Source: an uncultured Christensenella sp.
GTDB lineage: Bacteria > Bacillota > Clostridia > Christensenellales > UBA1242
Direction: 5' to 3'
Assembly (NCBI GenBank): GCA_949282135.1
Contig: CASDOR010000015.1
Coordinates: forward strand, 8,773-72,772
Length of the DNA stretch: 64,000 bases
The stretch's first letter is position 1; every line of letters begins with the position of its first letter. A program made the translations under genes and the position numbers. The notes beneath the pieces are model-generated. The model was not told where the DNA came from. It saw nothing but the letters and a program-made list of their open reading frames with translations, and did not search any database. Positions 13,036-33,959 of this stretch are shown here, piece by piece.

Positions 13036-13767
13036 TTAATTATCACCTACATCGTTTTTAGCTTCATCTACATTTTGAGCTTCATCCTCATTTTGAGTTT
13101 CATCTACATTTTGAGCTTCATCCTCATTTTGAACTTCATCTACATTTTGAGTTTCATCTACATTTTGAGTTTCATCTACATTTTTTTGCATTTTTGAGGT
13201 CAAATCTTCCATAATTTCATCCTTTAAGCTTTCTTTTTTGTATTTACCTCTATTTAAAACTCCAAAATAAACAAGAACACATAAAAGTATACTTACAGCT
13301 TCTATCACAAAACTTAATTCAAAATTTACATTAAAGTAAACAAGTACGCCTTGAACACCGCCAAATATAAAGGCTAAAACTACCACCCAAAAACCCAGTG
13401 ACTTATACCACTTTTTGCTGTCATTCGCTCCCTCTAAATTTGTTTCGCTTTCTTCTAAATTCTCTTTGCCTTCTTCTAAACTGCTTTCATTTTGCTCTAA
13501 ATTAGGCCCTGTTTCTTCTAATGCTGTCTCAAAGTCTTCTAATGCCTCCTCGTCTAAACTTTCAAGTAAACTCGTTTTAGTTTTCTCTAAAGTCTCCTCG
13601 CTAACACTTTGAAACAAGGTCGTCTCATTTAGACCTTCGCTACCTGACAACGCACTATCATCTACCTCTACTAATTCCTTGTTTTTAGTTTCTAAAGTTT
13701 CATTTTTACCACATTTTAAAACATTTTCATTAATATTTTCTTCTTGAATAGGAGTTTTTTTACTCAT
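13036..13767 (-). CDS. Two-TM holin-like membrane protein with acidic repeat extensions
   Basis: KWYKSLGFW plus two TM helices; overlaps the BhlA holin stop; C-terminal 6-aa DETQNV repeats. Confidence 0.55.
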   Translation of the reverse strand: MSKKTPIQEENINENVLKCGKNETLETKNKELVEVDDSALSGSEGLNETTLFQSVSEETLEKTKTSLLESLDEEALEDFETALEETGPNLEQNESSLEEGKENLEESETNLEGANDSKKWYKSLGFWVVVLAFIFGGVQGVLVYFNVNFELSFVIEAVSILLCVLVYFGVLNRGKYKKESLKDEIMEDLTSKMQKNVDETQNVDETQNVDEVQNEDEAQNVDETQNEDEAQNVDEAKNDVGDN

Positions 13768-13981
13768 TTTTACCTCCCTTTTTTATTAGCGAGGTGCGAA
13801 TTTCTCTTATGTCTTCCTTTATGTCCATAACGGTATCTAAGTGGCTATTTAACTTTGAAATGGTGTCCTGGTACTTCTTTTCCCTTTTTGCACTATCATT
13901 TAAAAGATAAACTAAAAGTCCAACAAACAGCATTGCCCAAATACCATTAGTGACCGCTTGACTAAAAATTTCTTCCCACAT
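13760..13981 (-). CDS. BhlA/UviB-family holin-like peptide
   Basis: GIWAMLFVGLLVYLLNDSAKREKKYQDTISKL matches the family pattern; GAGGTG SD. Confidence 0.85.
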   Translation of the reverse strand: MWEEIFSQAVTNGIWAMLFVGLLVYLLNDSAKREKKYQDTISKLNSHLDTVMDIKEDIREIRTSLIKKGGKNE

Positions 13982-14258
13982 CTAACACCTCTTGCCTTTA
14001 ATTCCCTAAAAGAATCCTAAATTCCTCTTTTAGTTCCTTTTCACTTATTTTTTTATTTTTCTCCATTTTTCACCTCACTTTTGTTAAAAAAACTATTTTT
14101 TTGGCGAAATAATTGCAGTTCTAACCTCAAAAAGCATAAAAAACTTGCTTCTTTACTTATAAAAAGCCTAAAAACTAAACTCCAAACCATTTTACTTAAC
14201 ATAAAGCTGAGCAAAACCAAAATTTTAATTAGTTTTTATTAAAAAAAACATTATTTTT

Positions 14259-15758
14259 TTAATTTTCAACCTTAAATCTAAGTTGCAAATTCTCAATATG
14301 TAAATTTCCAGAATTTGTAAATATTTTAAAGCTAAATTCTTTTCCCGGTAAATTTATGCTTAACCTTTGAAGATTGTCTTTTGCGGGCACGTCTATTTCT
14401 TTACTTCTTTTGTCTGACGTAACAAGTATTTTTGCCGGATACTTAGACAATAAGTAAATGTCTTTAAGTATTTTATTTTTGTCCCTTGAATCTAGAGTTA
14501 TTACACCACTTTCCCAGCTAGAGCTTAAGTTTGTATCTACTATTTTACATTCATCGGTTAGTTGATATAAAAGCTTTTTATTTCTTAGCGCAACAATTAA
14601 TTTTGATAAAAACAAATCATTTATTGCTACCATTGAACACACATCTATACCTTTTATAATAGTGTAAGTGTTGTCCTCTATATTAAATTCAATAAGTGCA
14701 TTGTTTATAGCTTCTTCATTCTCTATGCTACCATCATCAATATTTGATTGTGTTACAAGCCCATTATCAAGTCCTACTTTTTCAAAATCAAGATGACAAG
14801 CAATGTACAATTTTTTGTTAAAAAAACAAATACTTGCATCAAGTTGCTCCCTGTCAAGCAAACTTGAAATATTTAGTTCTAGCTTTTTTATGTCTACCCC
14901 ATCAAGAGAATACAAACCATCCTCGCATAAAAAGTAAATTAAATCTCCGCACTTACACGCAGTATTTGCATAGATTTTTGAGCCTGAAGTATAAATATTT
15001 GTTGCAAAATATTCATCACTTGAGGAATATGCACTTATCTTTGATATGCCATAGTCCTCAAAAACATAAATACTATCTTTAAAACTTACAAGCTTTCTAA
15101 GACTTCCTTTATAATCATTAAGTTCAATACTACCAGCATCATCACTACTTATAACATTTTTCTTCCAATCAAGAGGATTTTTATTTGAACTATACCTTAT
15201 AATATTGTCTTTTGAGGCATCTATCGCAAAAAGTCTATCACCGTGTAGACAAATTGACCTAAAATATGGTGCGTCTTCCACCTCGTAAATTGGGTCATCA
15301 CAATACCAAACAACTAGAGGTCTATCTTCAAAAGCAAAACCAATAACACTGTCCTCTTCAACCGTAAAATTAATGGTTGTTGGGATTGAAGAATAAACCG
15401 TATTACTAAGGCTTGCAAACTCGCCAATATGTGCAAACTCAGCAGAAAAATATAGCTTTCCATCATTTCCAAGTGCTACAAGGAGATATTCCTGACAATT
15501 ATTTGGTATGCTATAGTAGGTATAGTGCCAAATCTTAACAAATGAAAAAGTTTGCTCAAACATTACGTATTCGGTTCTGTCTGTCATAAGTGCTGGTAAA
15601 GTTAAAACTTCAAAGCCCTTTCCACTACTTAAAACTCCGTGTTTTACTTGAGTATTAAAACTTGCCCTACAATTCTTGTCCACAACATATTTACTTCTAT
15701 CTAAATCCATTTTTGACTCAAAAGACTCTAAGTTTATTCTTTCTTCCTTGTATTCCAT
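14259..15758 (-). CDS. Putative podophage-type tail nozzle / DNA-stabilisation protein (beta-propeller)
   Basis: 499 aa beta-rich (HGDRLF, IRYS..NPLDW, SSWESG); follows the adaptor in the head cluster; call is from size, position and motif feel. Confidence 0.6.
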   Translation of the reverse strand: MEYKEERINLESFESKMDLDRSKYVVDKNCRASFNTQVKHGVLSSGKGFEVLTLPALMTDRTEYVMFEQTFSFVKIWHYTYYSIPNNCQEYLLVALGNDGKLYFSAEFAHIGEFASLSNTVYSSIPTTINFTVEEDSVIGFAFEDRPLVVWYCDDPIYEVEDAPYFRSICLHGDRLFAIDASKDNIIRYSSNKNPLDWKKNVISSDDAGSIELNDYKGSLRKLVSFKDSIYVFEDYGISKISAYSSSDEYFATNIYTSGSKIYANTACKCGDLIYFLCEDGLYSLDGVDIKKLELNISSLLDREQLDASICFFNKKLYIACHLDFEKVGLDNGLVTQSNIDDGSIENEEAINNALIEFNIEDNTYTIIKGIDVCSMVAINDLFLSKLIVALRNKKLLYQLTDECKIVDTNLSSSWESGVITLDSRDKNKILKDIYLLSKYPAKILVTSDKRSKEIDVPAKDNLQRLSINLPGKEFSFKIFTNSGNLHIENLQLRFKVEN

Positions 15759-15765
15759 ATTATTC

Positions 15766-16350
15766 TTAAATCCACCTTTTAGTCTTAATTGTCGTACCTT
15801 GTTGCATAGTATTTGATAGTCCGTCCGTGTAATACCCTGCTAAACGTTCAGCATCATCATAAATCTCACATAAATTTAGATACTCACTAGCAACTCCAAG
15901 TGCAATTATTCTTGTGCCCACGTTGTAAAAAGCTTTTATTTCGTCATTTAACTCTAGAGTTGGTGGAATTATAGTGTAGTCAATAAACACTTTTTTGCCA
16001 TGGCTATTAAAAATTATCGTTTCCCCAACCTCAGCAAAAAGAATGTCCTCTAAATTTTCATCATACACCCTTAAAACCTTATTTATCTTATTTCCAGTAA
16101 GCGACTCAAGCTTTATACTTGTGTGGCCCTTAGAACCCAATAACACATAAGTCTCTTTTATCTGAAATTTTGTTAGTGCAAGTTCGTTTATAGTGTTGTT
16201 AAGTGCTAGCATTAATGTATCAAACTTTTTTTTGGTGTCCTCCGATGCGTTTAAAGTTTGAAGGTCAGCATTTTCCTCAAAATACATAGACAAATCATCA
16301 TAAATGTTTAGATAGTTTGAAGCAACTTTTAATATTTCAACAACTTTCAT
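15766..16350 (-). CDS. Putative head-tail adaptor (tail tubular A / P22 gp4-like position)
   Basis: 194 aa helix-beta-helix layout (LNNTINELA...IIALGVASEYL); position after capsid. Confidence 0.55.
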   Translation of the reverse strand: MKVVEILKVASNYLNIYDDLSMYFEENADLQTLNASEDTKKKFDTLMLALNNTINELALTKFQIKETYVLLGSKGHTSIKLESLTGNKINKVLRVYDENLEDILFAEVGETIIFNSHGKKVFIDYTIIPPTLELNDEIKAFYNVGTRIIALGVASEYLNLCEIYDDAERLAGYYTDGLSNTMQQGTTIKTKRWI

Positions 16351-16402: not shown

Positions 16403-16768
16403 TTAAATCCAACGCGTTTGATTTATGTTATCAAAACTTACGTCTTTCCCCTTTTTGTCTGCATAATCTAAATAGTCATTTAGTGTGGTTTTTGCGTGCA
16501 TAGCTATAGTTTCTTCTTCTTTTTGCCTTAATTTACTGTTATTTTCTTTGATAAATGAAAAAATTTTTTTTGCATTTCTAATATGCGTTTTGTATGCTTT
16601 ATCAATGGCACTTTTATCTAGTCTTTTGCCGATCATAAAAGAAAAAACGCTCCCACAAAATACCTCATAAACTTTTTTTGTTTTATCAAAATAAATTTGA
16701 TAATTTTTATCTACTTTCTTTATTCTATTTGTTATGTTATACAAGTCATGTTTTATTAAAGTTTTCAT
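16403..16768 (-). CDS. Hypothetical protein of the phage-like module
   Basis: 121 aa, AGGAG SD, between capsid and adaptor. Confidence 0.75.
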   Translation of the reverse strand: MKTLIKHDLYNITNRIKKVDKNYQIYFDKTKKVYEVFCGSVFSFMIGKRLDKSAIDKAYKTHIRNAKKIFSFIKENNSKLRQKEEETIAMHAKTTLNDYLDYADKKGKDVSFDNINQTRWI

Positions 16769-16828
16769 ATGTTAATTCTCCTAGAAAATAAAATTAAAAA
16801 GACAAATTCAAACTATAGTTATGAGACC

Positions 16829-16943
16829 GCGTGCGGGAAGTAAAATTTTAAAACACAAGGTTTTAAAATTTTCTTTGCCCATTTGCACGCAAATGGGCAA
16901 ACTTAGACTTTTTTCTCAAAAAAAGTCTAAACTTCCCGCACGC
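16829..16943. repeat. Four-way-junction element, copy 3
   Basis: GCGTGCGGGAAGT/ACTTCCCGCACGC outer stem plus three hairpins. Confidence 0.85.
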
Positions 16944-17029
16944 AACTAAAACTAAAGTCTCAAAACCTATTAAAATTTCTTGTTTAGACACTCTTAAAAT
17001 TATAACTAAAAGATTTTTTTACACATTTA

Positions 17030-18211
17030 TTAATTTGTCGTCTTAATGTTTGAAATCTTGCCTTGTGCACCAGGTCTGTCACATACAAGTTCTGCGTACT
17101 TTACAAGTGTTGCAGAATATGTAGGAGTTGTGCTTGATGGAATTAAAATACTTCCATTTTCAGTTTCAAGCCATTCCCAATCACAAAGTTGATGAAGAAT
17201 AAAGTCCTTAGTGTTAAGTAGATACATTGTTCCGTCCTCAACAAATCTCTCATAAACAACAGGAATACCTGCATAAGTCATAGTTTTATAACCGCCCTGA
17301 AGAGTAGACATATCAATGTTACGCCTATTTTCTGATAAATAACTTTGATAAGCAGTCCTAACATCCCCAGACACTGCAATAAAGTCGACCTGTTCCCCAG
17401 TCTCTTCCTCAATAGAGTTAAGTGCTGTTTGAATCATGCTATCACTAATGCTTGCCCCAGTAGCATTCGCGTTTACATATGGATAAAGCCAAGGATACGC
17501 ACTTCTATCTACGCCATAAAGCATTTCTGCCCCAGTACTTGTATCAAAAATTCTCTTTATACCTGTAATTTCATTGTCCTTTGAACCGCTTGCATAAAGC
17601 TTATTTCCATCGGCAATTGTAACTTCACTATCAAATACAACCTTTTTGTTTTGCCTGTCAACATAAGTGATAGTAGCCCCTGTTTTTGTAAAGCTTGAAC
17701 CATTATATACGTCAACCTTCATCCCTTCAACCAAGTTTTTAACTGAATCATATGTAATAATAGTCTCGTCCTCTTCGCCTTCTGTCACCTTTGCGGTTGC
17801 AAGAAGGCCTGTCCCATCCCCATAAAGCATACGACCAAGATTAAACGCACTTGACTTAATAAGACTCTCCATTTCGTCATTAAGCAAATTTACAAAAGCC
17901 CCAGTGTTTGATGCACTTGCCCTAATTGCCTTATCTGATAAAGCAATAGTACCATATAGGTTTTTAAGCCCTGTTTTGAATTGCACAAATTTGTGACCAC
18001 TTGCAGAAGGCAAGTTCCCATCTTCCGTACCAGAAGCTATACCCCCATTCAAGCCATAAGGTGCTAGTTTAATTATTTCTTTACCATATACGTCTTTGCT
18101 ACTTTGCTTAATTTGTGAAAGTAATGCGTTTGCCTTAATGTTAAGTTGTTCACTTAAAACTCCAAGATATACACTCTTTAGTGCCTCTTGTGCTGAATTT
18201 AATGTTATCAT
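17030..18211 (-). CDS. Phage major capsid protein (HK97 fold likely)
   Basis: 393 aa; EDGNLP, LYGTIALSDKAI, RMLYGDGTG, YAGIPVV..F...GTMYLLN, L..YAEL..DRP.AQG patterns; follows portal and scaffold. Confidence 0.85.
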   Translation of the reverse strand: MITLNSAQEALKSVYLGVLSEQLNIKANALLSQIKQSSKDVYGKEIIKLAPYGLNGGIASGTEDGNLPSASGHKFVQFKTGLKNLYGTIALSDKAIRASASNTGAFVNLLNDEMESLIKSSAFNLGRMLYGDGTGLLATAKVTEGEEDETIITYDSVKNLVEGMKVDVYNGSSFTKTGATITYVDRQNKKVVFDSEVTIADGNKLYASGSKDNEITGIKRIFDTSTGAEMLYGVDRSAYPWLYPYVNANATGASISDSMIQTALNSIEEETGEQVDFIAVSGDVRTAYQSYLSENRRNIDMSTLQGGYKTMTYAGIPVVYERFVEDGTMYLLNTKDFILHQLCDWEWLETENGSILIPSSTTPTYSATLVKYAELVCDRPGAQGKISNIKTTN

Positions 18212-18250: not shown

Positions 18251-18712
18251 TTAATTTTTTCTTTTGTCAAACATATCTTTAACTATACTTTCCGCCTCCT
18301 CAAGTGTATGCGGTTTACTTATAGGACTTATCACACTTCCGCCACCCCTATCACTACTGATAAGCTTTGGCGAAGCAGGCAAAATTAACTCGTCAAAATA
18401 CCTTGCAATAAGTTTGTCTTTAAGCTCTTTGTTGTTTAAGATATATTCTTGAAGTAACCTTTCTCTTTCCGCGCTCGAAAGAGTCTCTTCTTGATTTGAA
18501 AGTAGTTTGGGTGAGTTTGCCTCATTTTCCTCGTACTCTTTCTTGAGAGCACTATACGCCTGACACTTTTTCGTATACTCACTCTCTAAATTGTTGTAGG
18601 CAGTAAAAAGACTATCTGCGTCTTTAAACTTGCCATATTTGGAGCTAGTGTCAAGAGGTTTAGCATTTTCCTCTATTGAATTTTCTACTAGTTGTTCCAA
18701 ATTTTCATCCAT
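18251..18712 (-). CDS. Putative capsid scaffolding protein
   Basis: YGKFKDADSL..AYNNLE.E.TK motif typical of podophage scaffolds; between portal and capsid. Confidence 0.7.
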   Translation of the reverse strand: MDENLEQLVENSIEENAKPLDTSSKYGKFKDADSLFTAYNNLESEYTKKCQAYSALKKEYEENEANSPKLLSNQEETLSSAERERLLQEYILNNKELKDKLIARYFDELILPASPKLISSDRGGGSVISPISKPHTLEEAESIVKDMFDKRKN

Positions 18713-18894: not shown

Positions 18895-20472
18895 TTACGA
18901 CATTAGTCCAACACCAAAAAGTTCTAGTATCTTCCTTTTAACTTCTTTGTCTATCTCACCATTTTCATTTTTTAATATGTTAGACGCTAGAAGCTGTAAA
19001 ACATGTTCTCTTTTTGAAGATAAACTTTCATATAACGTACTATCTGACATAAACATTATGTCGTCAGTCGTTAGATCCGTATTTTTAAAGTACACCAAAC
19101 TCTTTTTATCATCCGTAGTTCTAAGTAGTCTTGGAGTCACCGCAAATTCCTTATAAAGTCTAAGTATCATTTTGGCAATCTCTTTTACCGCTCTATTTAC
19201 TTCGTCTGCAGTTGTGTTAATTCTAGAAGTATCTTGCTCAATAAGAAGTTCGAGTGCGACCCCACTCATGTTTGTCGAATTAAACCTAGTCGACAAAAGG
19301 TTAGTTACCCCACTTATATCACTAAACTCAGTAAGTAAGCTCTCTTCTTCCTCTTTAAACGCACTAGGTAGTCCCTCTTCATCAAGAAATTGAGGTTTAG
19401 TTGCCCCTTGCTTGTAAACAATGACTTTTCCTGGTTCTAGCCCATCTTGTGATAAGCTTTCTATGTCGACACTTCCGTCCTCAACAGTTAACACTCCGAG
19501 ACTTAGCCTATTCATGTACTCGTGCTTCCTGTTTTTAACTGCGTTATACGCCCTTTGAATAGGAATTAATTTGTCAATAACACTCTGCCCATAAAAACAA
19601 CCCGGCACTCTTAAAGACACTTGTTTTACAAATGGAAAGCCACGTTTGTTGTCTTGTAAGTTTATATAAGGAAGTTCTCCTAAATATAGTAGTTTATCTT
19701 GACAAACAACAATAAGCCTACCATTTGGATATTCGACACTTTCACTTTCGTACTTTTCAATGACAATAGCATGGTCTTTTCTTTTGACACCTTCAATTCC
19801 ACTTCCAGAAAAGTCAATCACGTCTATATCTTCACCCTTGACATTTACTCCCCACTTGTTTCTGATTTCCCTTGTGCTGTATGCCTTTGCGTGAATTATA
19901 CTTTCACAATCTCTAATTTCCTCATTTGCAACACTATCTACGTAAATCTCAAAAGGTGACACCGCATCAATCTCAATTTCACCTTCGTATACTATTTTTC
20001 CGTCCTTGTTATATATCTTCTTGCCTTTTGTTCCATTCCAAATTACTTTGTAAAAACTAGTCCCTGTTATCTCACTCCAAGTTGTTGCTCTTGAAATTAT
20101 TTCACTTAAATTTAATTTCTCATAGCACGAATATAAAATGTCTTGCGATAGTCTTGCAATCTTTTCATCCTCCTCACTTGACGAAGTAGGAATAACGTTC
20201 ATCTCCGGTTTTAAAGTGTTGAGTTTAGCAAGCCTAGTCTCAATTATTGGTGCAATGTGATTAAAAACCTTTCTCTCTTGCCAAAAATATGTCTTATTCG
20301 TAAGCTCAATGTCACTTAAAGAATTAATCCCAACAAATTGGTTACCCAGTAAAAAGTTGTTGTTTAGTCTCCACCTCGCTTCAAAAGGTTTTCTTTCCCT
20401 TTGGCGAATTAAAAAATCTTCTTGTACACTTCTCACTAAGTCCTCAATATACTCGTCCTTTTTCTTTTTCAT
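18895..20472 (-). CDS. Phage portal protein (P22-like)
   Basis: 525 aa; FNHIAPIIE, VSPFEIYVD, FYGQSVID.LIPIQ..YN, ISGV, SGVAL motifs. Confidence 0.85.
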   Translation of the reverse strand: MKKKKDEYIEDLVRSVQEDFLIRQRERKPFEARWRLNNNFLLGNQFVGINSLSDIELTNKTYFWQERKVFNHIAPIIETRLAKLNTLKPEMNVIPTSSSEEDEKIARLSQDILYSCYEKLNLSEIISRATTWSEITGTSFYKVIWNGTKGKKIYNKDGKIVYEGEIEIDAVSPFEIYVDSVANEEIRDCESIIHAKAYSTREIRNKWGVNVKGEDIDVIDFSGSGIEGVKRKDHAIVIEKYESESVEYPNGRLIVVCQDKLLYLGELPYINLQDNKRGFPFVKQVSLRVPGCFYGQSVIDKLIPIQRAYNAVKNRKHEYMNRLSLGVLTVEDGSVDIESLSQDGLEPGKVIVYKQGATKPQFLDEEGLPSAFKEEEESLLTEFSDISGVTNLLSTRFNSTNMSGVALELLIEQDTSRINTTADEVNRAVKEIAKMILRLYKEFAVTPRLLRTTDDKKSLVYFKNTDLTTDDIMFMSDSTLYESLSSKREHVLQLLASNILKNENGEIDKEVKRKILELFGVGLMS

Positions 20473-20919
20473 CTTTTCCTCCCTCCTTTAAGTTTTTTTT
20501 GTCCTCTCACAGTCCTACTTTAATTTTAAATTATATAAATATGCGTTTTCAAATTTCACTGCCAACTTTTTTTTAAAATTATTTTTTAACCCCCCAAAAA
20601 CCCCTTATTTTTAGGCAAGACTCAAAAATTAAATTTAAGCTTTCTGACTTAAGAAAAAAACGAAAAAACATCTTCTTACAATTCACAGAATGTAAAGACT
20701 AAGTGGTTTTTTATAATGTTATGAATAACTAATTAAACTCTTTTATAAGACTAGACAAAAAATTTAATAAGATAGAAAAAATATCACCCCACATAAGCAA
20801 ACCAGTTTCTAGCTTTTTTTAATTGGTTTGTATTGCATAATCAAGTACCTCATTTTGTAACATTAATAGTAAATCTCCCTTTAACTATCTTGCATTACAA
20901 AAACCGGTCTCTTGCCAAA

Positions 20920-21039
20920 CGGGCGGGCTCTCCTTGTTGTAAAATTTTAATTTTACAACAAGGGCGGAGGGATGCGAGACAAGTCTCGCATCCCCCGCCT
21001 TTTTGTTGCAAACTTGCAACAAAAAGTAGAGCCCGTCCG
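20920..21039. repeat. Four-way-junction element, copy 4
   Basis: CGGGCGGGCTCT/AGAGCCCGTCCG outer stem plus three hairpins. Confidence 0.85.
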
Positions 21040-21472
21040 CCTTAAAAATAATTTTTATACCTCTAACTAGTAAAAAAAAGAGAGCTTTTTAACCCAATAG
21101 GTTACTTAAAACTCTCTACATACAAAATAAAAACTAATACTTATAATAATACAAAATATATCTATTTTTTTTATTTTTAAAACAATACTGTGACCTTGTG
21201 TCTTTTTTTAGTTTTTATAATCTCATATATTATATTTTGCGTGTTATTAAATTATATATATCTACACTCTATAAAAACTCTCTATCTTTTTTATTAAAAC
21301 TAAAAATTTTATATGGGGTCGTTATTATATTTCAAAGTGACATTGTTGTACTTCTATTTATTTACCAAAATTAATATGACCTCTTAAAATAAAAAAAGCA
21401 CAACATAAATTTTATGTTGCACGCTCTTCTTTATAACTCGCACAAAAAACAAAAAGGTAACTTGAAACAAAA

Positions 21473-21814: not shown

Positions 21815-21843
21815 TTTCTTGCCTCCATTTTCAAATGCAAAAT

Positions 21844-25337: not shown

Positions 25338-25338
25338 T

Positions 25339-26049
25339 TTAACGTAAAAATAAATATCTATTTTGTCTTTTTTTGCAATAATCTTTATAGAGGTCAGGTC
25401 GTCTAAGCTTTGTAATTTCAAGAGCTTTTTCAAGCCTCCAATTATTTATTTCTTTATGATTGCCACTAGTTAAAACCTCTGGGACTTTAAGTCCCCTAAA
25501 AACTTGCGGTCTAGTGTACTGCGGATATTCTAAAAGTCCATTTGAAAAGGATTCTTCCTCTGTCGTTATATTATTCCCAAGCACATTTGGAATATATCTT
25601 GAAATGCTGTCAATAAGTACCATAGCTGGGATTTCACCACCTGTTAAAACATAATCCCCAATCGAAATCTCCTCGTCCACGCATAAATCAATTATTCTTT
25701 CGTCAATCCCCTCGTAGTGTCCGCAAATGAGTATAAGTTCTTTTTGAGTTTTTGCTAGTTCGACAACTTTTTCCTGCGTCAAAACTTTACCTCTTGGCGA
25801 CAAATAAATTGTGTAACTCTTGTCCGTTTTAACACTACTTATCGCATCAAAAAGAGGCTGAGGGGTCATAATCATACCAGCCCCTCCTCCATAAGAATAG
25901 TCATCACACCTTTTATTATTATCAAGCGAATAGTCCCTAATGTTTACAATATTAATTTCAATTAAATTTTTCTCTTGCGCTCTCTTTAGAATACTTGCGT
26001 TAAGGCTCTCAAACATTTCAGGAAAAAGAGTTAAAATAGTTATTTTCAT
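25339..26049 (-). CDS. trmD: tRNA (guanine-N1)-methyltransferase
   Basis: LTLFPEMF, YGGGAGM, CGHYEGIDER, SIGDYVLTGGE, LEYPQYTRP. Confidence 0.98.
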   Translation of the reverse strand: MKITILTLFPEMFESLNASILKRAQEKNLIEINIVNIRDYSLDNNKRCDDYSYGGGAGMIMTPQPLFDAISSVKTDKSYTIYLSPRGKVLTQEKVVELAKTQKELILICGHYEGIDERIIDLCVDEEISIGDYVLTGGEIPAMVLIDSISRYIPNVLGNNITTEEESFSNGLLEYPQYTRPQVFRGLKVPEVLTSGNHKEINNWRLEKALEITKLRRPDLYKDYCKKRQNRYLFLR

Positions 26050-26531
26050 ATAATAACCTCGTCAAGCTTTTTCTCGTTCACAACCACTCTTTTATTTTGC
26101 GTGTCAACACTAATAATGATATTTTTGAGGTATGGAAAACTAAAACTCGCCCCAGTTCTGACTAAATTTATAATGTCAGCACTGCCATATCTTTCTACAC
26201 TTTCAATCCTGCCCCTGTAATCCCCCTTATCATCATACACGTCAGCGTTTATTAGGTCTTGAATAAGATATTCTCCGTCTTTTCTTAAAACCTCTTCGTC
26301 TACCTTTAAAGTTTTGTTCCTAAGTCTCTCTGCCTCGTCAATACTATTTACCTCACTAAAGGTCAAATACAAAAAGCCTTTGTAAAACCTAAGACTTACT
26401 ATCGTGTAGAGCACGCCATCTATATAAACATTTTTAACCTCATGCCAAAAAGAGACGTCTTTATTAAACATTTCAAGTTTGACTTCCCCTTTTAAACCAT
26501 GAGGTTTTAAAATCTTTGCTATTTCAATCAT
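26046..26531 (-). CDS. rimM: 16S rRNA processing protein RimM
   Basis: KPHGLKGEVK, PRC-barrel C-terminus, synteny. Confidence 0.93.
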   Translation of the reverse strand: MIEIAKILKPHGLKGEVKLEMFNKDVSFWHEVKNVYIDGVLYTIVSLRFYKGFLYLTFSEVNSIDEAERLRNKTLKVDEEVLRKDGEYLIQDLINADVYDDKGDYRGRIESVERYGSADIINLVRTGASFSFPYLKNIIISVDTQNKRVVVNEKKLDEVII

Positions 26532-26544
26532 ATTTTCTTACTTT

Positions 26545-26732
26545 TTTTAAACTACTTTTTTATTTTAAAAACTACTTTTATATTCTAAAAATTTTTCTTT
26601 TGCTTAAAAACTACTTCTTAATTTTTAAAACTACTTTTTTAATTTTAAAATTTACTTCTTAATATTTAAAACTACTTCTTTTGCTTAAAAACTACTTCTT
26701 AATTTTTAAAACTACTTTTTTAATTTTAAAAT
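26545..26732. repeat. ~20-bp AT-rich tandem repeat (AAAAACTACTTYTTAATTTT)
   Basis: ~9 degenerate copies. Confidence 0.75.
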
Positions 26733-26963
26733 TTACTTCTTAATTTTAAAAATTACTTTTTTATCACTATTTGAATTTGCCGAATGTAAAATTGCTCTGA
26801 TTGCTTGTGCGACTTTGCCATTCTTACCAATAATTTTGCCAACTTCCTCGTCAGCAACACTTACTTCAAATACTATAGCGTTTTCCTCTTCCTTTTTCTC
26901 AATAGTTACTTTGTCCTTTTCCTCAATAAGGCTTTCAACTATAAATCTAAGTAATTCTTCCAT
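26733..26963 (-). CDS. khpA: KH-domain RNA-binding protein KhpA/YlqC
   Basis: GKIIGKNGKVAQAIR; follows rpsP. Confidence 0.92.
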   Translation of the reverse strand: MEELLRFIVESLIEEKDKVTIEKKEEENAIVFEVSVADEEVGKIIGKNGKVAQAIRAILHSANSNSDKKVIFKIKK

Positions 26964-26986
26964 TTTTTCTCCTTTTTATTTAAGTT

Positions 26987-27292
26987 TTAAGCCTTTTTTG
27001 CGTCTTTTTTCTTTGGAACAATTTTTTTACTAGCATAAGGTTTTGGATTTTCTACAATCCCAGCTTTAACAAGCAAAGTCCTTGCAGTCTCAGTTGGTTG
27101 TGCCCCGTTTTTTAGCCAAGTCAGAGTCTTTTCTTTGTCAAGTTTTAAGTTATTAGTTGCAACTAGTGGATTAAAATACCCAAGACTATCAATAACTTTT
27201 CCATCTCTACTTGTCCTTGCATCTGCAACAACTACTCTGTAAAAAGGACTTTTCTTATCCCCCATTCTTGTAAGTCTAATCTTAACTGCCAT
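26987..27292 (-). CDS. rpsP: 30S ribosomal protein S16
   Basis: [28 protein letters not shown]; start after AAGGAG. Confidence 0.98.
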
Positions 27293-27374
27293 TTCTTTCT
27301 CTCCTTTGTTTAGTTTATATATCTTCAAATTTTTTTTAATTAAAAATTTGTAAAAACCTATCTATTAAAACTTT

Positions 27375-27690
27375 TTAAAAACTTCGCCCTCTTTGAAAGT
27401 TATTTAAGCTTTAAAACCGCCACCTCTAGATAAATGTTTTAAGTAAGTCGCATCTTATAAAAACTCACCCATTTTTCAAAGTCTCGCCCTCATTTTAGCC
27501 TTCGCCCCTTTAAGTCTGACCCTCAAAAAAACTTGCTTTCATAAAACTCGCCTACTCCCATTTAAGCCTGACCCTCAAAAAACTTGCTTTCATAAAACTC
27601 GCCTACTCCCCTTTAAGCCTGACCCCGGAGAAGTTGCCCCCCTGAAAGCTTGACCCCCTGAAAGCTTGACCCCCCTGAAAGCTTGACCCC
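27375..27690. repeat. Short degenerate repeats (AAAGCTTGACCCC / AAAACTCGCCC) downstream of ffh
   Basis: Directly visible; same family as downstream of recA. Confidence 0.75.
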
Positions 27691-29003
27691 TAGAATTTGA
27701 GACCTCTAAAGTTGCCACCTTTGACACGTTTCATCATAAGCTTGCTTTGTTCAAAACTCTTAAGAAGTCTATTGACATCTTGAATTTGTGTCCCACTACC
27801 ATTTGCAATCCTCTTTTTCTGACCTGCTTTAATAATGTCAGGATTTCTCCTTTCTCGCACCGTCATACTCTGAATAATCGCCTTATTCCTTGCAAGTTCC
27901 TTTTCGTCAACCTGCATGCCTTTCATTTTACCACTCATGCCAGGAATCATATTTATTATGTCATTTATGTTCCCCATTTTGTTTAGCTTTTCCATTTGAG
28001 AAAGATAATCCTCAAAGGTAAAGCTACTCTCTCTAAACTTCTTCTCTAGCTTCTTCGCCTCTTCCTCACTCACCGCACTTTGTGCTTTTTCAATAAGAGT
28101 TAGAACGTCACCCATGCCTAGAATTCTAGATGCCATTCTGTCTGGATAAAAAGGTTCAATGTCACCTAACTTCTCGCCTGTGCCACAAAACTTAATAGGC
28201 TTTTTAACAACTTCGCTTATGCTTAGTGCTGCTCCGCCTCTTGTGTCTCCGTCAAGTTTTGTAAGTATCACACCGCTTAAATCTAAGGTCTCGTCAAAAG
28301 TCTTTGCTACGTTTACTGACTCCTGCCCATTCATAGCATCAACAACTAAAAGAATTTCAGTAGGCTTTACTGCATTTTTTATTCTAACAAGCTCGTCCAT
28401 AAGTTCCTTGTCTATGCTAAGTCGCCCAGCAGTGTCAATAATGACAGTGTCATACATCTTCTTATTTGCCTCAAGTATTGCCTCTTTGCAAGTCTTTACT
28501 ACGTCTTGCTTGCCCTTCTCAAAAACCTCTACGTTAGCTCCTTTCCCAACAACTTTAAGTTGCTCAATCGCCGCCGGTCTATAAATGTCACAACCAACAA
28601 GCATTGGACGTTTGCCTTGAGTTTTTAGCATCATGGCAAGTTTTCCGCACATTGTCGTCTTACCACTACCTTGAAGTCCACATAACATAATAATTGTTGG
28701 AGGTGCACTTGAGACAGCTAACTTGCTGTTTGCCCCTCCCATAAGAGATATAAGTTCTTCATTCACTATCTTTATAACTTGCTGTCCAGGGGTCAAACTA
28801 TTTAAAACTTCTTGTCCGACCGCCTTTTCACTCACCCTCTTTATGAAATCTTTTGCAACAAGATAGTTTACGTCAGCCTCAAGTAGTGCAACACGAATTT
28901 CACGCATTGCATCCCTTATCTCAAGTTCAGTGAGTTTTCCTCTTTTGGTCAGGTGCGAAAAAATGTGATTAAGTCTAAGTGACAAATTAGAAAACATCCC
29001 CAT
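27690..29003 (-). CDS. ffh: Signal recognition particle protein
   Basis: LLEADV, GLQGSGKTT, DIYRPAA, DTAGR, TKLDGDTRGGAALS, RIANGSG. Confidence 0.98.
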   Translation of the reverse strand: MGMFSNLSLRLNHIFSHLTKRGKLTELEIRDAMREIRVALLEADVNYLVAKDFIKRVSEKAVGQEVLNSLTPGQQVIKIVNEELISLMGGANSKLAVSSAPPTIIMLCGLQGSGKTTMCGKLAMMLKTQGKRPMLVGCDIYRPAAIEQLKVVGKGANVEVFEKGKQDVVKTCKEAILEANKKMYDTVIIDTAGRLSIDKELMDELVRIKNAVKPTEILLVVDAMNGQESVNVAKTFDETLDLSGVILTKLDGDTRGGAALSISEVVKKPIKFCGTGEKLGDIEPFYPDRMASRILGMGDVLTLIEKAQSAVSEEEAKKLEKKFRESSFTFEDYLSQMEKLNKMGNINDIINMIPGMSGKMKGMQVDEKELARNKAIIQSMTVRERRNPDIIKAGQKKRIANGSGTQIQDVNRLLKSFEQSKLMMKRVKGGNFRGLKF

Positions 29004-29336
29004 CTACATTACCTCCAGTGCCTCATTTAAAACTTGCACAACTAAGTCTTTACTCGCATTGCTATTAAGCAAAGTTATGCTTTTTTCGATTTTACCTCTA
29101 AGCTCGTCAAATTTCTTGAGGAGTTTAAGTTTCTCTTCATACTCTTCAAGTATAGCAATCGTTCGCTTAATCAAATCATTTATTGCTTGACGCGAAGAAT
29201 TATACAATATCGCCAGCTCGCTAATAGAAATGTTTTGATAAACAAAGCCTGACAAGACAAGCCTTTGCTTTTCCGTTAAAAGTGGCGAATAAAAATCAAA
29301 CAATAAACTTACCCTAAGACTTTCTTCTATTCTCAT
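29004..29336 (-). CDS. ylxM: YlxM (UPF0122) HTH protein
   Basis: LFDFYSPLLTEKQ, SRQAIND.IKR, LEEYEEKL; directly upstream of ffh. Confidence 0.92.
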   Translation of the reverse strand: MRIEESLRVSLLFDFYSPLLTEKQRLVLSGFVYQNISISELAILYNSSRQAINDLIKRTIAILEEYEEKLKLLKKFDELRGKIEKSITLLNSNASKDLVVQVLNEALEVM

Positions 29337-29356
29337 ATCTTCCTATTACAACAATA

Positions 29357-29411
29357 TGTAAAGTAAATTTACTTTACAAACTAATTATATGTATTTTTCT
29401 TTCCCTGTCAA
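29357..29411 (-). promoter_or_regulatory. ylxM-ffh promoter with palindromic operator-like site
   Basis: TTGACA-16bp-TATAAT (29411-29384); perfect 22-bp palindrome TGTAAAGTAAATTTACTTTACA at 29357-29378. Confidence 0.75.
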
Positions 29412-29655
29412 GAACTTTTATTAAAATATTTATATTAAATTTAATTGGTAGATAAAATATGATTAATTTATAAATATTACATATAATAATAGACTTAAAT
29501 TAAATATGAAAAATAAAACCTATTTTTAGTAAATATGTAAAATTTGGCAAGACGCATAACCTTTGATATAGGAATAAAACTAATAAGGCAATATGTATAA
29601 AAAACTTGATAAATACCTAAACTCATGTAGATAGATAAAAATAATATAATAATAC

Positions 29656-29773
29656 GGGGCGGGCGGTTTTTTGTAAAACTTAAGTTTTACAAAAAAGTGA
29701 TGCTTTGTTACCACAAAGCATCACCTTTTGTGCTTTTTTTAAAAAGAAAAAAGCACAAAACTCCGCCCGCCCC
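29656..29773. repeat. Four-way-junction element, copy 5
   Basis: GGGGCGGGCGG/CCGCCCGCCCC outer stem plus three hairpins. Confidence 0.85.
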
Positions 29774-29920
29774 ACTTTTCTTCTCCTACCCCTTTTTTCT
29801 TCCTCCTCTTTTTTTCTCTCCCCTACACCTGTTTTAAATTCTCACACAAAAATAGGTCATAATTAATGTTAAATTTTTCTCTTCTTTACAATAACAAAAT
29901 CCGCCTTATAAACCCACCTC

Positions 29921-30223
29921 TTATTTATTTTTAAGGTCATTTATAAGTTCAAAAAGTCTGTCTTTTTCTACTTCAAGTTCTTCATCACTCATCTTACTAA
30001 AGTCTTTTTCATTTTTAAGGCTTAGTAAAATCTTAATCGACTCAACATCAGGATTTGCCACTTTTACAGTAGTTTTGCAAGACTTAAGTCTCTTCTCTCC
30101 TTTTTCATCATACACATATTCACTAATCGACTCGCTAGACTTTGCCCCTTTAACAAGCCTAAGAAGTGCTTCAACCACAATTTCTATTTGCTTAGCATTT
30201 GTCAGTTTTTCCTCTTTTTTCAT
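29921..30223 (-). CDS. Putative terminase small subunit-like protein
   Basis: VEALL...KG...K.T.K...PDVESIKILL resembles the Firmicute phage TerS oligomerisation motif; adjacent to TerL. Confidence 0.6.
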   Translation of the reverse strand: MKKEEKLTNAKQIEIVVEALLRLVKGAKSSESISEYVYDEKGEKRLKSCKTTVKVANPDVESIKILLSLKNEKDFSKMSDEELEVEKDRLFELINDLKNK

Positions 30224-30550: not shown

Positions 30551-31987
30551 CTATTCAAAACTTAAATGTCTACGTTTATTTTTTAAAATCATACTTTCTT
30601 TGTATTTTTCAAGCCTTGTTTTTTTTCGCTCATGCGCGGCAGGTCTTGTCATAAGATAATACCTAAGTTCATCCAAACTATGGTCATCTTTTTTTACTGG
30701 ATTATCTCCCCCTCCCCAAAAATATGATTTAATTTCTCTTATCATGTTTACACAGTTCTTAAAAATAAAAAGCCTACTTACCCCGTCTGCATTTTTAAGA
30801 TAACTCTTCACAACCGCTATTCCAGAAAAGAGGTCTTTATTGACTTTAGTGTTTACATTTATGCCCCTTTCATTAAATAACTCTGCCACACTCTTTATTC
30901 CATTTAAAGTCCTTTGCCCTGCCGCGCTATCTATTAGTGCTGAATACTTATTAAATCCGTCAACTTTCCAATTGAGCTCGCTACAAATCTCTTTTATTTT
31001 GTTTGCATGATAATCAATATCTCTATTCTTTTCGTAGTGCTCGCGAATAACATAAACATTTCCATCAAAGTCAACCGCGTACCAGTGACAAGCTAAAGGA
31101 TTATTAAGCCCCGGGTCAATTGATATGTTGTCATACCACTCTTTTGGTACATTAAAAGGCTCAATTACATTTACATTTTCGTCAAACTCACTATACACTA
31201 GCCCACTTGACAAAACAAATCTCCCATACTTTCTACTTTCGAGTTCTTCACTTGACATGCTCTCACTAAAAAACTTAATTTCCTTTCTATCTAAAAACGG
31301 ATTGTCCTCCCAGGTCATTGTCTCATACCAAACTTCACTGCTGTTTTTGTCGTTTAAATAAATCTCATTATATACCCAGCTAAGCCCCTTAAGTGGTGTC
31401 ATAGTTCCAAAAATGTCCCCCTGTTTATCTAAAACTCTCATGCGACACTCCATGTATATTTCTTCGTCAGGCTCTTCGTCAAACCACACATAATCAAGAC
31501 TTGCCCCTTGAAATTTTTCTCTTCCCTGGTCACAACTCTTAAAACCAATTGTCGACACCCCACCAAACACATTTTTTATTTTTATGTAGTCTATAACTCC
31601 GCTTTCTGGGTAGTCTTTCTTCCCCTGTTGCATAACAACCTCAACAATCCACTCTTTTTTAAGGTAATGTAAAATCTTTTTTTGTGCGACATCTCTTTGA
31701 ACTTGCCTTGATAAACTTACAACCCACCCTATCGTGTCTCGTTTATTTTTTCTAAATGGATGACAACCCCTTGCCATATATACAGTCTCAACCGCTCCGC
31801 ACTCAGTCTTTCCCGTTCTATTTCCGCCAAACACCCAGCGGTTACGCTTTTTGCACTTGTGAAATTCAAGTTGTTTTAAATGTTTTATTTCTCCTCTATT
31901 ATAATTAAATAAGGCATCTTCCTCTTTTCTCTTTTTAAGCTCTAGGTAAAGTTTTTGAAGTCGGTCAACAAGCTTAAATTTTTCCAT
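30551..31987 (-). CDS. Phage terminase large subunit
   Basis: Walker A GGNRTGKT, Walker B VWFDEEP, motif C TMTP, nuclease IDPG and DDHSLDELRY. Confidence 0.93.
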   Translation of the reverse strand: MEKFKLVDRLQKLYLELKKRKEEDALFNYNRGEIKHLKQLEFHKCKKRNRWVFGGNRTGKTECGAVETVYMARGCHPFRKNKRDTIGWVVSLSRQVQRDVAQKKILHYLKKEWIVEVVMQQGKKDYPESGVIDYIKIKNVFGGVSTIGFKSCDQGREKFQGASLDYVWFDEEPDEEIYMECRMRVLDKQGDIFGTMTPLKGLSWVYNEIYLNDKNSSEVWYETMTWEDNPFLDRKEIKFFSESMSSEELESRKYGRFVLSSGLVYSEFDENVNVIEPFNVPKEWYDNISIDPGLNNPLACHWYAVDFDGNVYVIREHYEKNRDIDYHANKIKEICSELNWKVDGFNKYSALIDSAAGQRTLNGIKSVAELFNERGINVNTKVNKDLFSGIAVVKSYLKNADGVSRLFIFKNCVNMIREIKSYFWGGGDNPVKKDDHSLDELRYYLMTRPAAHERKKTRLEKYKESMILKNKRRHLSFE

Positions 31988-32294
31988 GTCTTTTCTTCCC
32001 TCCTTTTGTTTGTTTTTTTACCCTTTCCTTCTCCTTTTTTTTAAAAAAACTTTCAATTTAAATAGGTCTTAAGTTACAAAAAAATAAATGCTAACTAGTT
32101 TAAATTTTAAGCAACTTGACAATAATTAAGTGGCGAAAAAAATTTTAATATTTTAAAAACTTCACCTTATTTATGATAATCTATAAAACCTCTAAACTTC
32201 ACAAAATATTGTTTTTTTTGCCAAACTTTTTGTAGCTAAATAGAATACAATTACTTTGACCAACAGACGATTAAATAAAAGGAGAAATTTACGT

Positions 32295-33134
32295 ATGAAA
32301 GTTAAAAATAGGTTTTTAACTTTTATTTTTATATGTTTACTTGTTTTGTCTCAAAACTGGCTTTTATTTTTTAGTATAAGTACAAATGCTTACGCAAAAC
32401 TTACTACCTTTGTCTACGCACGAGTAAACATGCCGGGAGTTAATTTATATAAAACAACCAACCCAACAAGTAGTAATGTCTACTTTGAAATTCCAAAAAC
32501 TTACTTTGTTTTACTTATTGCCGATTTTAACGAATTGTTTTATAAAGCTCAGTATAGAGATGTCGTAGGCTACGTTTTAAAAGACGAGGTCATCCCAGTT
32601 AAAGAGACTCCTAATTCCCCATATTTAGAGGACCACTCAGTTTACGTTTTTTCAAGGGATGGACTAGATATAATGTCGTCCCCAAATGAAAGTGCTTATA
32701 TAGTGACAACTACTGACCTTTATGACGACCTATCTTACTACGGTGAAAGACAGGGCTATGAAAAGGCACAAGGACGAGGAGAAACCTGGTTTTATGTCAA
32801 AACAAATAATGGAACTTTTGGTTATGTCTATGCAGGACTTTGCGAAAGTGACAACATAATTACCGAAAATACCGAAGTCACGACCGAAGTAAAAGACCCT
32901 TTTCTTGATAACGACTCCTCTTATCTATATAATCTTGTAGACCTGCCAGCTGGTCTCAAAATCCTTTTAATATCTCTTGTGATTTTACCAGCAGTTATTT
33001 TGCTATTTTTAATGTTTAGACCAATTCTCTTAGAAAAATACTTAAAATCAAAAAGCCCAAAAGTTACTAAACGTGAACGCAAAAACAAAACTATCAAACA
33101 AATTCAAGAACTCACTGACGATAGTAGCCTTTAG
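32295..33134 (+). CDS. Exported protein with SH3b-like segments and C-terminal TM helix
   Basis: Signal-like N-terminus; YKAQY....GYV and WFYV.....GYV motifs; TM plus basic tail; AAGGAG SD. Confidence 0.7.
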   Translation: MKVKNRFLTFIFICLLVLSQNWLLFFSISTNAYAKLTTFVYARVNMPGVNLYKTTNPTSSNVYFEIPKTYFVLLIADFNELFYKAQYRDVVGYVLKDEVIPVKETPNSPYLEDHSVYVFSRDGLDIMSSPNESAYIVTTTDLYDDLSYYGERQGYEKAQGRGETWFYVKTNNGTFGYVYAGLCESDNIITENTEVTTEVKDPFLDNDSSYLYNLVDLPAGLKILLISLVILPAVILLFLMFRPILLEKYLKSKSPKVTKRERKNKTIKQIQELTDDSSL

Positions 33135-33323
33135 TGTTCGTTAGCGTCTTTTTTAGCACGTATCACCCCTCGCGTACTTTTTTATTAACACTAAGTAATA
33201 AAGCTTTCATACTATAGTTATCTAGCCTTAAATCAAACTTAAGTCTTCTAACCTTTTTTAGAATAATTTTACAAATAATTTCTTTAGAGATTATACCTCT
33301 TTTTATGTATTAGTCTCGCTTTT

Positions 33324-33362
33324 ACCTCTTTTTTGGCTTAATTTTGTGCCAAAAAAAGAGGT
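33324..33362. terminator. Inverted repeat / bidirectional terminator
   Basis: ACCTCTTTTTTGGC...GCCAAAAAAAGAGGT between convergent genes. Confidence 0.65.
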
Positions 33363-33380
33363 TAGAGACACTTCAGAATA

Positions 33381-33959
33381 CTAAATCTTTCTTAATTTCC
33401 TTATTATAAACTCGCAAATTAAGTCACCTTTTAAATCAATATCTCCACCTTTATTTTTGAACTCTGACACGTTGTTTAAAATGTCAGTTAAAAGCATCTC
33501 TCCAAAAATTTCTTTTGACACCTCCCTGTTTTCTACTATTTTTTTAAAAAAATGTCTTTTAAATAAGTCAAGTGCTCTTGTTATTTTTCTGTAAAATCCC
33601 CTTTCGCTTATATTAAACAACTTTAAACAAGTATCTTTTTTTAAATTGTCAATATATCTTGCACTGATAAGCCTAATGTCAGTGTCTGAAAGTAAATTTA
33701 AACTTTCATCAATAAAAAGTTTAAGATTAATTAATGCCACCTTTTTATTTGTTAGTCTTATTATCTTTTCCCCATTTTCTTCTATATGCGTTAATTCAGG
33801 CAAGAAAATAGTGGCGCTTGCTTTTGCCACAACTAAAGAATCAATGCTACTAGCAATCTTTGGCAAAAGAGAATAAGCTGATAAACAGATTTTACATAGT
33901 TCTAAAAAATTATCTTCATTATTTGTTGTTGTTAATTTCTCATTTGTTAATTCTTTCAT
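33381..33959 (-). CDS. ArpU/RinA-like phage late transcriptional activator (sigma-70 region-4-type HTH)
   Basis: IDESLNLL...D..LI.ARYID...ISERGFYRK..RAL pattern. Confidence 0.6.
   Translation of the reverse strand: MKELTNEKLTTTNNEDNFLELCKICLSAYSLLPKIASSIDSLVVAKASATIFLPELTHIEENGEKIIRLTNKKVALINLKLFIDESLNLLSDTDIRLISARYIDNLKKDTCLKLFNISERGFYRKITRALDLFKRHFFKKIVENREVSKEIFGEMLLTDILNNVSEFKNKGGDIDLKGDLICEFIIRKLRKI

Follow-up and report, generated by a model that had tools for sequence, protein, structure and literature searches.

The 64,000-nucleotide stretch analyzed in this study, referred to below as the window, belongs to contig CASDOR010000015.1 (positions 8,773 to 72,772) of assembly GCA_949282135.1, a metagenome-assembled genome (MAG) of an uncultured Christensenella species that is 97.5% complete and comprises 1.25 Mb in 29 contigs. 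Between positions 13036 and 33959 of the window lies a cluster of genes for the packaging machinery, head, and short tail of a podovirus, divided in two by a block of housekeeping genes; an original prediction, drawn from the DNA letters, had proposed that it is a domesticated gene transfer agent (GTA)-like system. All the open reading frames (ORFs) of that prediction are present on the minus strand, which is the strand of every gene described below unless indicated otherwise, and the host chromosome encodes phage-derived capsid, portal, and terminase genes. In family profile searches, the large terminase TerL (30551..31987) matched Terminase_6N (E = 1.4e-13), Terminase_6C (4.2e-5), and phrog_2 (6.7e-32). 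Its Walker A, Walker B, and nuclease aspartate motifs are invariant across 14 species, as are 204 of its 478 residues, which bears out the earlier call of a full-length protein with ATPase and nuclease motifs. The portal (18895..20472) is of the P22/SU10 type (P22_portal, 2.1e-23; SU10_portal, 2e-12; phrog_156, 3.6e-34), and the major capsid protein (17030..18211), of the HK97 fold and SU10_MCP-like, matched the major head protein family phrog_14242 (8.9e-53). The SU10_MCP family itself is carried by neighbors of the capsid in the Atlas, and we treat this as a lead.

The two proteins that follow, of 194 aa (15766..16350) and 499 aa (14259..15758), matched no sequence family, and searches of the PDB with profiles made from orthologue alignments gave nothing below E = 0.06. 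AlphaFold (AF2) models built from 14 orthologues each were compared with the PDB by Foldseek. The top matches of the smaller model (pLDDT 86.7) were the adaptors of KHP30, N4, Pa223, SU10, and crAss001 (E = 4.8e-6 to 1e-4), while the larger model (pLDDT 84.6, pTM 0.86), a beta-propeller with a C-terminal beta-sandwich, best matched the Pa223 tail chain 9nwi_Y (E = 1.7e-21, TM 0.72), with further matches to VP1, P22 gp10, SU10, and T7 gp12. On these predicted structures, the portal and capsid are followed by a podovirus-type head-to-tail adaptor and a tail nozzle or hub, so that these four assignments of the original prediction are upheld, two by family matches and two by the models.

The remaining members of the cluster are small. 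A candidate regulator of the sigma-70 region 4/DUF1492 (ArpU) type, 192 aa in length (33381..33959), is encoded by the first gene of the conserved block and keeps its position in 12 genus relatives; it matches phrog_36 (3.4e-6) and, below the threshold, DUF1492 (E = 0.0016; 19 bits where 21.5 are required). Of its 12 orthologues, three have hits to DUF1492 (best E = 2.8e-8), Sigma70_r4_2, or Sigma70_ECF, the Pfam ArpU model not being among the matches of the regulator. Between TerL and portal, at a position conserved in the genus, stands a gene for a 100-aa small-terminase (TerS) candidate (29921..30223); the copy in the window matched no family, and one of nine orthologues weakly matched phrog_309, a TerS family (E = 0.0024). 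An acidic 153-aa protein (18251..18712), without a family in the profile searches, is a scaffold candidate by its position between portal and capsid, which is the same in 13 genus relatives. The conserved 121-aa protein (16403..16768) has no assigned role, no family, and no PDB sequence match (nothing below E = 0.06, profile search included), and its gene is present in 43 of the 80 loci that were fetched from across the order Christensenellales. Two holin-like genes had been predicted at the end of the cluster, of which the one at 13760..13981 encodes a BhlA-family holin (PF10960, E = 1.2e-16) that is 57 to 96% identical across 13 genus relatives, with no match passing the filter in one other (G010). 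The second (13036..13767) is a weaker case: it encodes a variable, acidic-repeat membrane protein of 243 aa with no family above the cut-off, its gene contains 18-nt tandem repeats, and among 14 relatives it had a partial match in G018 only, no orthologue passing the coverage filter, which makes it a doubtful member of the system. On the plus strand, a gene for a predicted membrane-anchored SH3b-domain protein (32256..33134; SH3_3, E = 7.5e-5, below the cut-off), with hydrophobic segments at both its N and C termini, adjoins TerL; of 64 loci across the order with a TerL gene, 38 show this adjacency.

The cluster is widely kept within the genus. As the original prediction would lead one to expect, single-copy orthologues occur in 24 to 25 of 27 other species (TerL in 25, capsid in 24, portal in 24), each with one full-length match at 50 to 89% identity. 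In two of the genomes with a missing gene, G004 and G015, the flanking markers are absent as well, and the region is therefore probably unassembled in them. The site is shared by all 10 relatives fetched with flanks, reading gyrB-gyrA-pda-ssb-regulator-SH3b gene (opposite strand)-TerL and on through the holin to a membrane gene, with RNase J and a sigma factor further downstream where the contig reaches; in one further species (G014) the cluster is inverted, next to pda-ssb. The flanks of the cluster are housekeeping genes across the genus. In the window, the upstream neighbors, identified by Pfam, are a polysaccharide deacetylase (pda; 35693..36472) and an SSB-like protein with two OB folds (34980..35627), and the conserved downstream neighbors are a multi-pass membrane protein (11852..12793) and RNase J (9108..11306). 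The pda and SSB-like genes may be members of the system or may only reflect old synteny.

All cluster orthologues in the 14 species are open frames of conserved length, and the stops flagged in some matches (G010, G042, and G009) were not seen once the frames had been cut out. The ratio of nonsynonymous to synonymous substitution rates (dN/dS) was estimated by NG86, using the unsaturated pair G007-G009 (dS of 0.07 to 0.25). Ratios were 0.028 for TerL, 0.028 for portal, 0.015 for capsid, 0.038 for nozzle, 0.012 for adaptor, 0.096 for the 121-aa gene, 0.19 for scaffold, 0 for holin, and 0.023 for the regulator, compared with 0.005 to 0.06 for flanking genes; dS is equal for cluster and flanks, and more distant pairs give a like picture. 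Maximum-likelihood trees of 11 genomes, one from TerL, portal, capsid, and nozzle (2038 columns) and the other from gyrB, gyrA, rnj, and the sigma factor gene (2874 columns), have all 8 internal splits in common. The trees and substitution ratios, the latter (0.01 to 0.19) lying far below one with dS as in the flanks, thus both agree with what had been predicted, and by these comparisons the cluster has been vertically inherited under strong purifying selection.

A different outcome was obtained for the division of the cluster by genes for ribosomal and signal recognition particle components, which had been regarded as a feature of the system. The host genes are there: ylxM, ffh, rpsP, a KH gene, rimM, trmD, ylqF/rbgA, rnhB, yraN, and rplS were confirmed by family matches between the TerS-like gene and the portal (block 21442..29436, genes 29336-21473, minus strand), together with a RhuM-family gene (23955-24998) between trmD and ylqF that had gone unmentioned. 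In all 13 genus relatives with enough contig, however, the cluster is contiguous (about 11 kb) with no host genes inside, its order being TerL, 100-aa gene, portal, scaffold, capsid, 121-aa gene, adaptor, nozzle, and holin; TerL and capsid are about 3 kb apart in every relative, and ffh lies on another contig. The contiguous form is also that of the closest relative, G018 (82 to 89% protein identity), whose cluster aligns by blastn to window positions 30349-29948 and then straight to 20578-18896, and whose ffh block (contig C42) is collinear with 21442-29436. The former site of the block in the window's genome can be recognized in the middle of contig C11 (16950-20206, locus L134), between ftsY and a pda-like gene, and is now occupied by a helix-turn-helix-type ORF and a 597-aa BspA-type leucine-rich-repeat surface protein. 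As these alignments indicate, an 8-kb self-contained housekeeping block moved between the TerS-like gene and the portal, and the split is a secondary rearrangement seen only in the window's species, not a property of the system. A species-specific split of this kind suggests that the two halves can work as separate transcription units. The place of the RhuM gene is empty or filled by other DNA in relatives, and in two metagenome runs the depth of its contig was 47 to 109x, against 3 to 10x around it, which points to a gene shared with other organisms or present in several copies. Two further sets of repeats were noted in the block, namely some ten A+T-rich tandem units of 20 nt between rimM and the KH gene (26507-26788) and G+C-rich repeats of 16 to 52 nt between rpsP and ffh (27498-27695), where other strains have deletions of 60 to 184 nt.

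Both junctions of the block coincide with members of a family of structured repeats, each with a G+C-rich outer stem around three long hairpins in a four-way-junction-like arrangement (minimum free energy, -72 to -100 kcal/mol per 150 to 260 nt). Copies lie at 16769-17029, 20880-21060, 29640-29790, and 34560-34750, with a partial one near 6730-6767; their sequences differ while the architecture is kept, and no Rfam family was matched at the gathering threshold. The repeat that had been noticed inside the head cluster is the one at 16769..17029 (-83.6 kcal/mol), 3' of the capsid gene and before the 121-aa gene, and it is partly conserved in G018; the copy at 34560-34750 lies upstream of the regulator gene. 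Junction A (29437..29920) has, by its blastn breakpoints, no counterpart in G018 and includes the repeat at 29640-29790 (-71.6 kcal/mol), whereas junction B (20473..21441) includes that at 20880-21060.

Structured repeats at both junctions, in which short-read contigs break, and a 29-contig assembly raise the question of whether the split is an artefact and the true arrangement contiguous. We aligned Logan contigs to window positions 18500-32000, using four metagenome runs, each of a different study and either from chicken gut or unlabelled; the statements that follow concern the pieces listed. Junction B is crossed by two single contigs of different studies, which extend from portal into rplS, yraN, and rnhB and on to ylqF or RhuM, one (run X5, record 8, 5508 nt) covering 18855-24937 and the other (run X8, record 20, 4435 nt) covering 19426-23941, with indels in the junction spacer. 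The rearrangement therefore looks real, since independent contigs of two studies bridge portal to rplS. Junction A was crossed by no listed piece: the contig on the ffh side (run X1) ends at 29740 and those on the TerS side start at 29747-29830, inside the palindromic repeat, the two outer-stem arms of which fall on opposite sides of the break. The TerS-side contigs, on the other hand, end in junction-specific DNA and not in portal, and the ancestral ffh site on C11 is filled by other genes mid-contig. Of the two joins that a misassembly might have produced, junction B is thus confirmed and junction A is likely, and we regard an assembly artefact as very improbable. Runs X5 and X6 carry an RNA-Seq label, although their content is probably DNA, and no RNA run was among those listed.

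Several promoter-like sites accompany the rearranged parts. A 12/12 match to the sigma-70 consensus precedes ylxM (29411-29384), a terminator-like hairpin follows rplS (21422-21398), and the site TTGAAA-18-TAAAAT with an upstream TTGGCAGTGAAA box stands 74 nt before the portal (20523-20565). The 106 nt directly upstream of the portal are common to the window and G018, so that the last site is older than the split. A scan for sigma-70 sites gave 81 hits overall, which is at the chance level (74.6 ± 9.3 in shuffled sequences), and the named sites are suggestive only. The portal site overlaps a conserved box, TTGGCAGTGAAATTTGAAAA (20546-20565), that was considered as a marker of a regulon. The genome contains 13 sites with up to 4 mismatches (elsewhere, among others, at C6:14031-14050, C9:43520-43539, C15:2547-2566, and C29:280-299); one lies upstream of the regulator gene, and better ones precede groES-groEL, rsmE, and a gene for a coiled-coil membrane protein. 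Given these latter sites, the box appears to be a general type of strong promoter, perhaps a strong-promoter or regulator site used by several genes, and not a signal specific to the system, and the idea of a regulon marker was rejected. Judged by eye against the consensus sequences, it does not look like a CIRCE element or a canonical sigma-54 site.

Beyond the genus, a relative is encoded in each of at least 586 stretches of species-representative genomes, and the names of related contigs include Christensenella, Christensenellaceae/Christensenellales, Ca. Onthoplasma, Ca. Borkfalkia, and 'CAG:917'. In an even sample of 401 species of the order, 191 have the capsid (E ≤ 1e-20), almost without exception as a single match, and its presence by family is close to all-or-none (e.g., 20/20, 17/21, 17/20, 6/6, and 10/11 versus 0/21, 0/21, 0/20, 0/20, and 0/20). 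Among the 80 fetched loci a recurrent block can be discerned, pda-ssb-[regulator]-SH3b gene (opposite strand)-TerL through nozzle-[holin]-[membrane gene-RNase J]; pda and SSB-like genes adjoin the cluster in 26 to 27 of them. In a capsid tree of 57 sequences, for which 40 of the 191 order matches were chosen by eye from the top matches so as to spread the families, 51 chromosomal sequences from 16 families form one clade (SH-aLRT 99), outside of which fall five sequences from viral contigs and a second, prophage-like copy. The host-family label requires 18 changes on this tree (minimum, 17), compared with a mean of 44.6 after shuffling and none as low in 200 shuffles; on this tree, then, the capsids group by host family. 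Outside the order, the capsid profile matched 15 of 384 genomes of the class at E ≤ 1e-10, nine of them in one family, and it had no match in seven families with 12 to 15 sampled genomes each. In some relatives the cluster contains a tandem pair of capsid genes (G213:C2:8035-9201 and 9219-10367; IMG/VR loci L166, L169, L172, and L176). Genomes of the genus or family of only 0.8 to 1.3 Mb, at 95 to 100% estimated completeness, keep the cluster, and that it persists at a genome size of about 1 Mb speaks for a function of value to the host. Such sizes are unusually small for a putative spore former; the spore-forming lineage assumed in the original prediction is plausible, as the Spo0A and SpoIVA families are present in the window's genome, where they were looked for. 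For one protein of the family, the source gives the cultured species Maliibacterium massiliense as its origin; the first copy in this species is flanked by cdaA-ybbR and has no integrase close by. Full-text literature searches found no paper describing this locus of Christensenellales.

No genes for mobility accompany the cluster. The four matches to integrase families in the genome all lie on other contigs, in agreement with the predicted lack of an integrase in the window; the window contains no tRNA, and no replication genes turned up when the ORFs of the cluster and its neighbors were scanned for families. What marks an integrated prophage, namely an integrase, att sites, modules for lysogeny and replication, and a patchy presence among strains, was not seen. 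Because it has no integrase, replication, or lysogeny genes, the locus should be unable to move or multiply alone. Among deposited phages, 4 of 50,697 records matched the capsid, at 23 to 27% identity. Among the 80 listed of 141 IMG/VR relatives, host flank markers occur only beside clusters with capsid identity of at least 44% and never at 38% or less, and the clusters that have them are best read as the same chromosomal cluster called viral. A second copy in a complete 2.4-Mb genome (L042, G033:C1:2216000-2235900) has a capsid identical to that of an IMG/VR viral contig (L191), more widely spaced genes, and additional large ORFs on the tail side; it appears to be a genuine prophage within this head lineage and is a useful outgroup. 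As a side observation, the window also contains a class A RNase P RNA (232 bits) at 8291-8877, whose 587 nt, against a model of 367 positions, imply that it carries large insertions.

Taken together, the comparisons establish the gene identities, their intactness, single copy, fixed position, and vertical descent, and strong purifying selection, as judged from sequence, across the genus and much of the order. The central proposal of the original prediction, a vertically inherited, non-excisable, and selected phage-derived system, is in keeping with the fixed site, the trees, the dN/dS ratios, and a contig devoid of integrase genes. In our judgment, the locus is probably a domesticated, chromosomally fixed, podovirus-derived system for a GTA-like (viriform) particle, descended from a phage resembling SU10 or P22. 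It bears the signature of a GTA because minimal particle genes and a holin, with no replication, integration, or lysogeny genes, are combined with a host-fixed site, great age, and constraint of housekeeping grade in genomes from which much else has been lost. The sigma-like regulator would switch on TerL, the TerS-like protein, portal, scaffold, capsid, 121-aa protein, adaptor, and nozzle; these proteins would assemble into a small capsid with a stub tail, into which TerL would pack DNA by the headful; and the BhlA holin would aid release through lysis of the producer cell, the locus itself being passed on only with the chromosome. Particle production, a random content of host DNA, and delivery are steps that we infer.

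Several observations weigh against this interpretation: (i) the proposal is built on genes and not on observed particles, packaged DNA, or transfer in the lineage; (ii) strong selection indicates a function, which need not be gene transfer; (iii) the assignments of the regulator and TerS, ArpU/RinA-like and TerS-like in the original prediction, are weak by sequence comparison; (iv) in the family scans, neither the cluster nor its neighborhood showed a recognizable receptor-binding fiber or spike, ejection protein, tail needle, or endolysin; (v) no second operon for fiber and lysis parts was found, whereas the podovirus-like GTA of Faecalibacterium prausnitzii (FpGTA) needed one, although the whole genome was not annotated here; (vi) several families of the order have no capsid match in some 20 sampled species each; and (vii) in one genus member (G005) TerL is cut after about residue 325 in mid-contig and followed by unrelated DNA, with no portal or capsid found, which is probably a real loss of the cluster and suggests that the system can be lost. 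A tblastn search for a second structural or lysis operon, with the tail-side proteins of the two Maliibacterium-like copies (L041 and L042) against the window's genome, gave nothing at E ≤ 1e-3 even for the proteins at the nozzle position, which are too diverged for BLAST and make the search uninformative. The ComEC and DprA families are present, but they are also found in 10 to 11 of 14 control genomes and say little about delivery of DNA to recipients.

The same genes might have been selected for another function of the host, such as interference with phages (by diverting DNA or by supplying or stealing virion parts), a particle for killing or lysis, programmed lysis that releases DNA for the population, or a function linked to sporulation. 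Any role beneficial to the host would suit the purifying selection and vertical descent, no receptor-binding protein was recognized, the constant neighbors are envelope or cell-wall proteins (pda and the SH3b membrane protein) and an SSB-like protein, and Spo0A and SpoIVA are found in a 1.25-Mb genome. A complete DNA-packaging set is retained, however, with TerL motifs invariant and with portal, adaptor, and nozzle, which pure lysis or killing would not need, and the closest characterized system with this gene set, going by its published description, packages host DNA (PMC12946183). We consider such a role rather unlikely, though worth serious attention. Dependence on a helper for tails, fibers, and induction, either by a satellite of the capsid-forming phage-inducible chromosomal island (PICI) type or by a defective prophage, would account for head and packaging genes without a recognized fiber or endolysin and for a sigma/ArpU-type regulator placed in front, as in phage late operons. 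It fits poorly with a contig free of integrase, replication, and excision genes, with a site fixed across species and families in co-divergence with the host, and with an adaptor and nozzle of its own, and it strikes us as improbable. That the cluster is a decaying, functionless prophage remnant, split by chance, seems scarcely credible: it lacks a lysogeny and replication module, is interrupted by host genes in the window's species, and has lost the end of TerL in one other, but all genes are intact in the 14 species examined, the dN/dS ratios are those of housekeeping flanks, the cluster is kept in genomes of 0.8 to 1.3 Mb across the genus and in nearly half of the sampled species of the order, and congruent trees exclude recent independent insertions.

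Thorough study of GTAs has been confined to the Alphaproteobacteria. RcGTA and other alphaproteobacterial GTAs, VSH-1, and BaGTA are siphovirus- or myovirus-like, with a tape measure and tail tube, are often encoded by several loci, have been shown to transfer DNA, and are produced in a manner coupled to lysis. The domesticated system proposed here resembles them in its phage-derived head and packaging genes, vertical inheritance, purifying selection, and absence of integrase and replication genes, and differs in being podovirus-like. With the podophages SU10/Kuravirus, P22, and Pa223 it shares the portal families and the predicted adaptor and nozzle folds; unlike them, it has no recognized fibers or spikes, ejection proteins, or replication or lysogeny genes, and the nearest deposited phage capsids are 23 to 27% identical. 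The PBSX-like defective prophages of Bacillus are likewise phage-like elements fixed in the chromosome of a Firmicute; they package host DNA and lyse the producer, but they have a contractile tail, span about 28 kb, and kill rather than transfer, and their structural genes are unrelated to those of the present locus as far as family matches show. Capsid-forming PICIs encode their own capsid, portal, and terminase and no full tail; they are mobile and carry integrase and replication genes, in contrast to the fixed locus described here, which has neither.

The closest counterpart is FpGTA, the first podovirus-like GTA to have been published, with a 10.5-kb operon of ten ORFs (FpGTA I) that comprises TerS, TerL, portal (RCH50851.1), scaffold, capsid (RCH50849.1), and short-tail proteins and, as described, no replication genes; a second operon encodes fiber, receptor-binding protein, holin, and endolysin, particles of about 40 nm contain 8.4 to 8.9 kb of host DNA, and every genome of a genus carries the system (Borodovich et al. 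2026; PMC12946183). The statement in the original prediction that no characterized equivalent is known is accordingly outdated. As GTAs and a podovirus-like GTA were known before, what is new here is another host order, a one-locus layout that includes the holin, a constant neighborhood of SH3b, pda, and SSB-like genes, a deep and clean evolutionary record, and a capsid profile that does not reach most other families of Clostridia. The same report notes GTA-like packaging for MAGs of Christensenellaceae in 3 of 25 events, for which the published account names no locus, loci having been sought only in four MAGs of Oscillospirales (PMC12946183). The locus described in this study is a concrete candidate, backed by its evolution, for the genes behind that packaging; about half of the species sampled from this prevalent gut order have it conserved, and the cultured relative M. 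massiliense makes the hypothesis testable at the bench.

Going by the published description of its gene set, FpGTA and the Christensenellales locus are alike in a compact set of about 10 kb for TerS, TerL, portal, scaffold, capsid, and short tail, in the podovirus-like particle to be expected from it, and in a host that is a Gram-positive gut anaerobe of the Clostridia. They differ in host order, in the TerS-like gene following TerL, in the holin lying within the locus, in the second operon, of which we found none here, and in the kind of data available, FpGTA having particle, DNA-size, and proteomics data (PMC12946183) and the present locus, in this respect unlike RcGTA, VSH-1, and BaGTA as well, being known from its genes. 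The match of the capsid profile to 15 of 384 genomes outside the order, a sample that may not include Faecalibacterium, hints at a separate or very distant origin. We tentatively suggest, as a possibility for which the balance is not yet favorable, that a single ancient capture of a short-tailed phage, independent of FpGTA, gave Christensenellales a host-owned packaging particle, which many of its families have retained ever since they arose, even where the genome of a spore former has shrunk to about 1 Mb, and which is the source of the Christensenellaceae GTA-like packaging seen in human gut viromes. If so, podovirus-type GTAs would be a recurrent invention of gut Clostridia.

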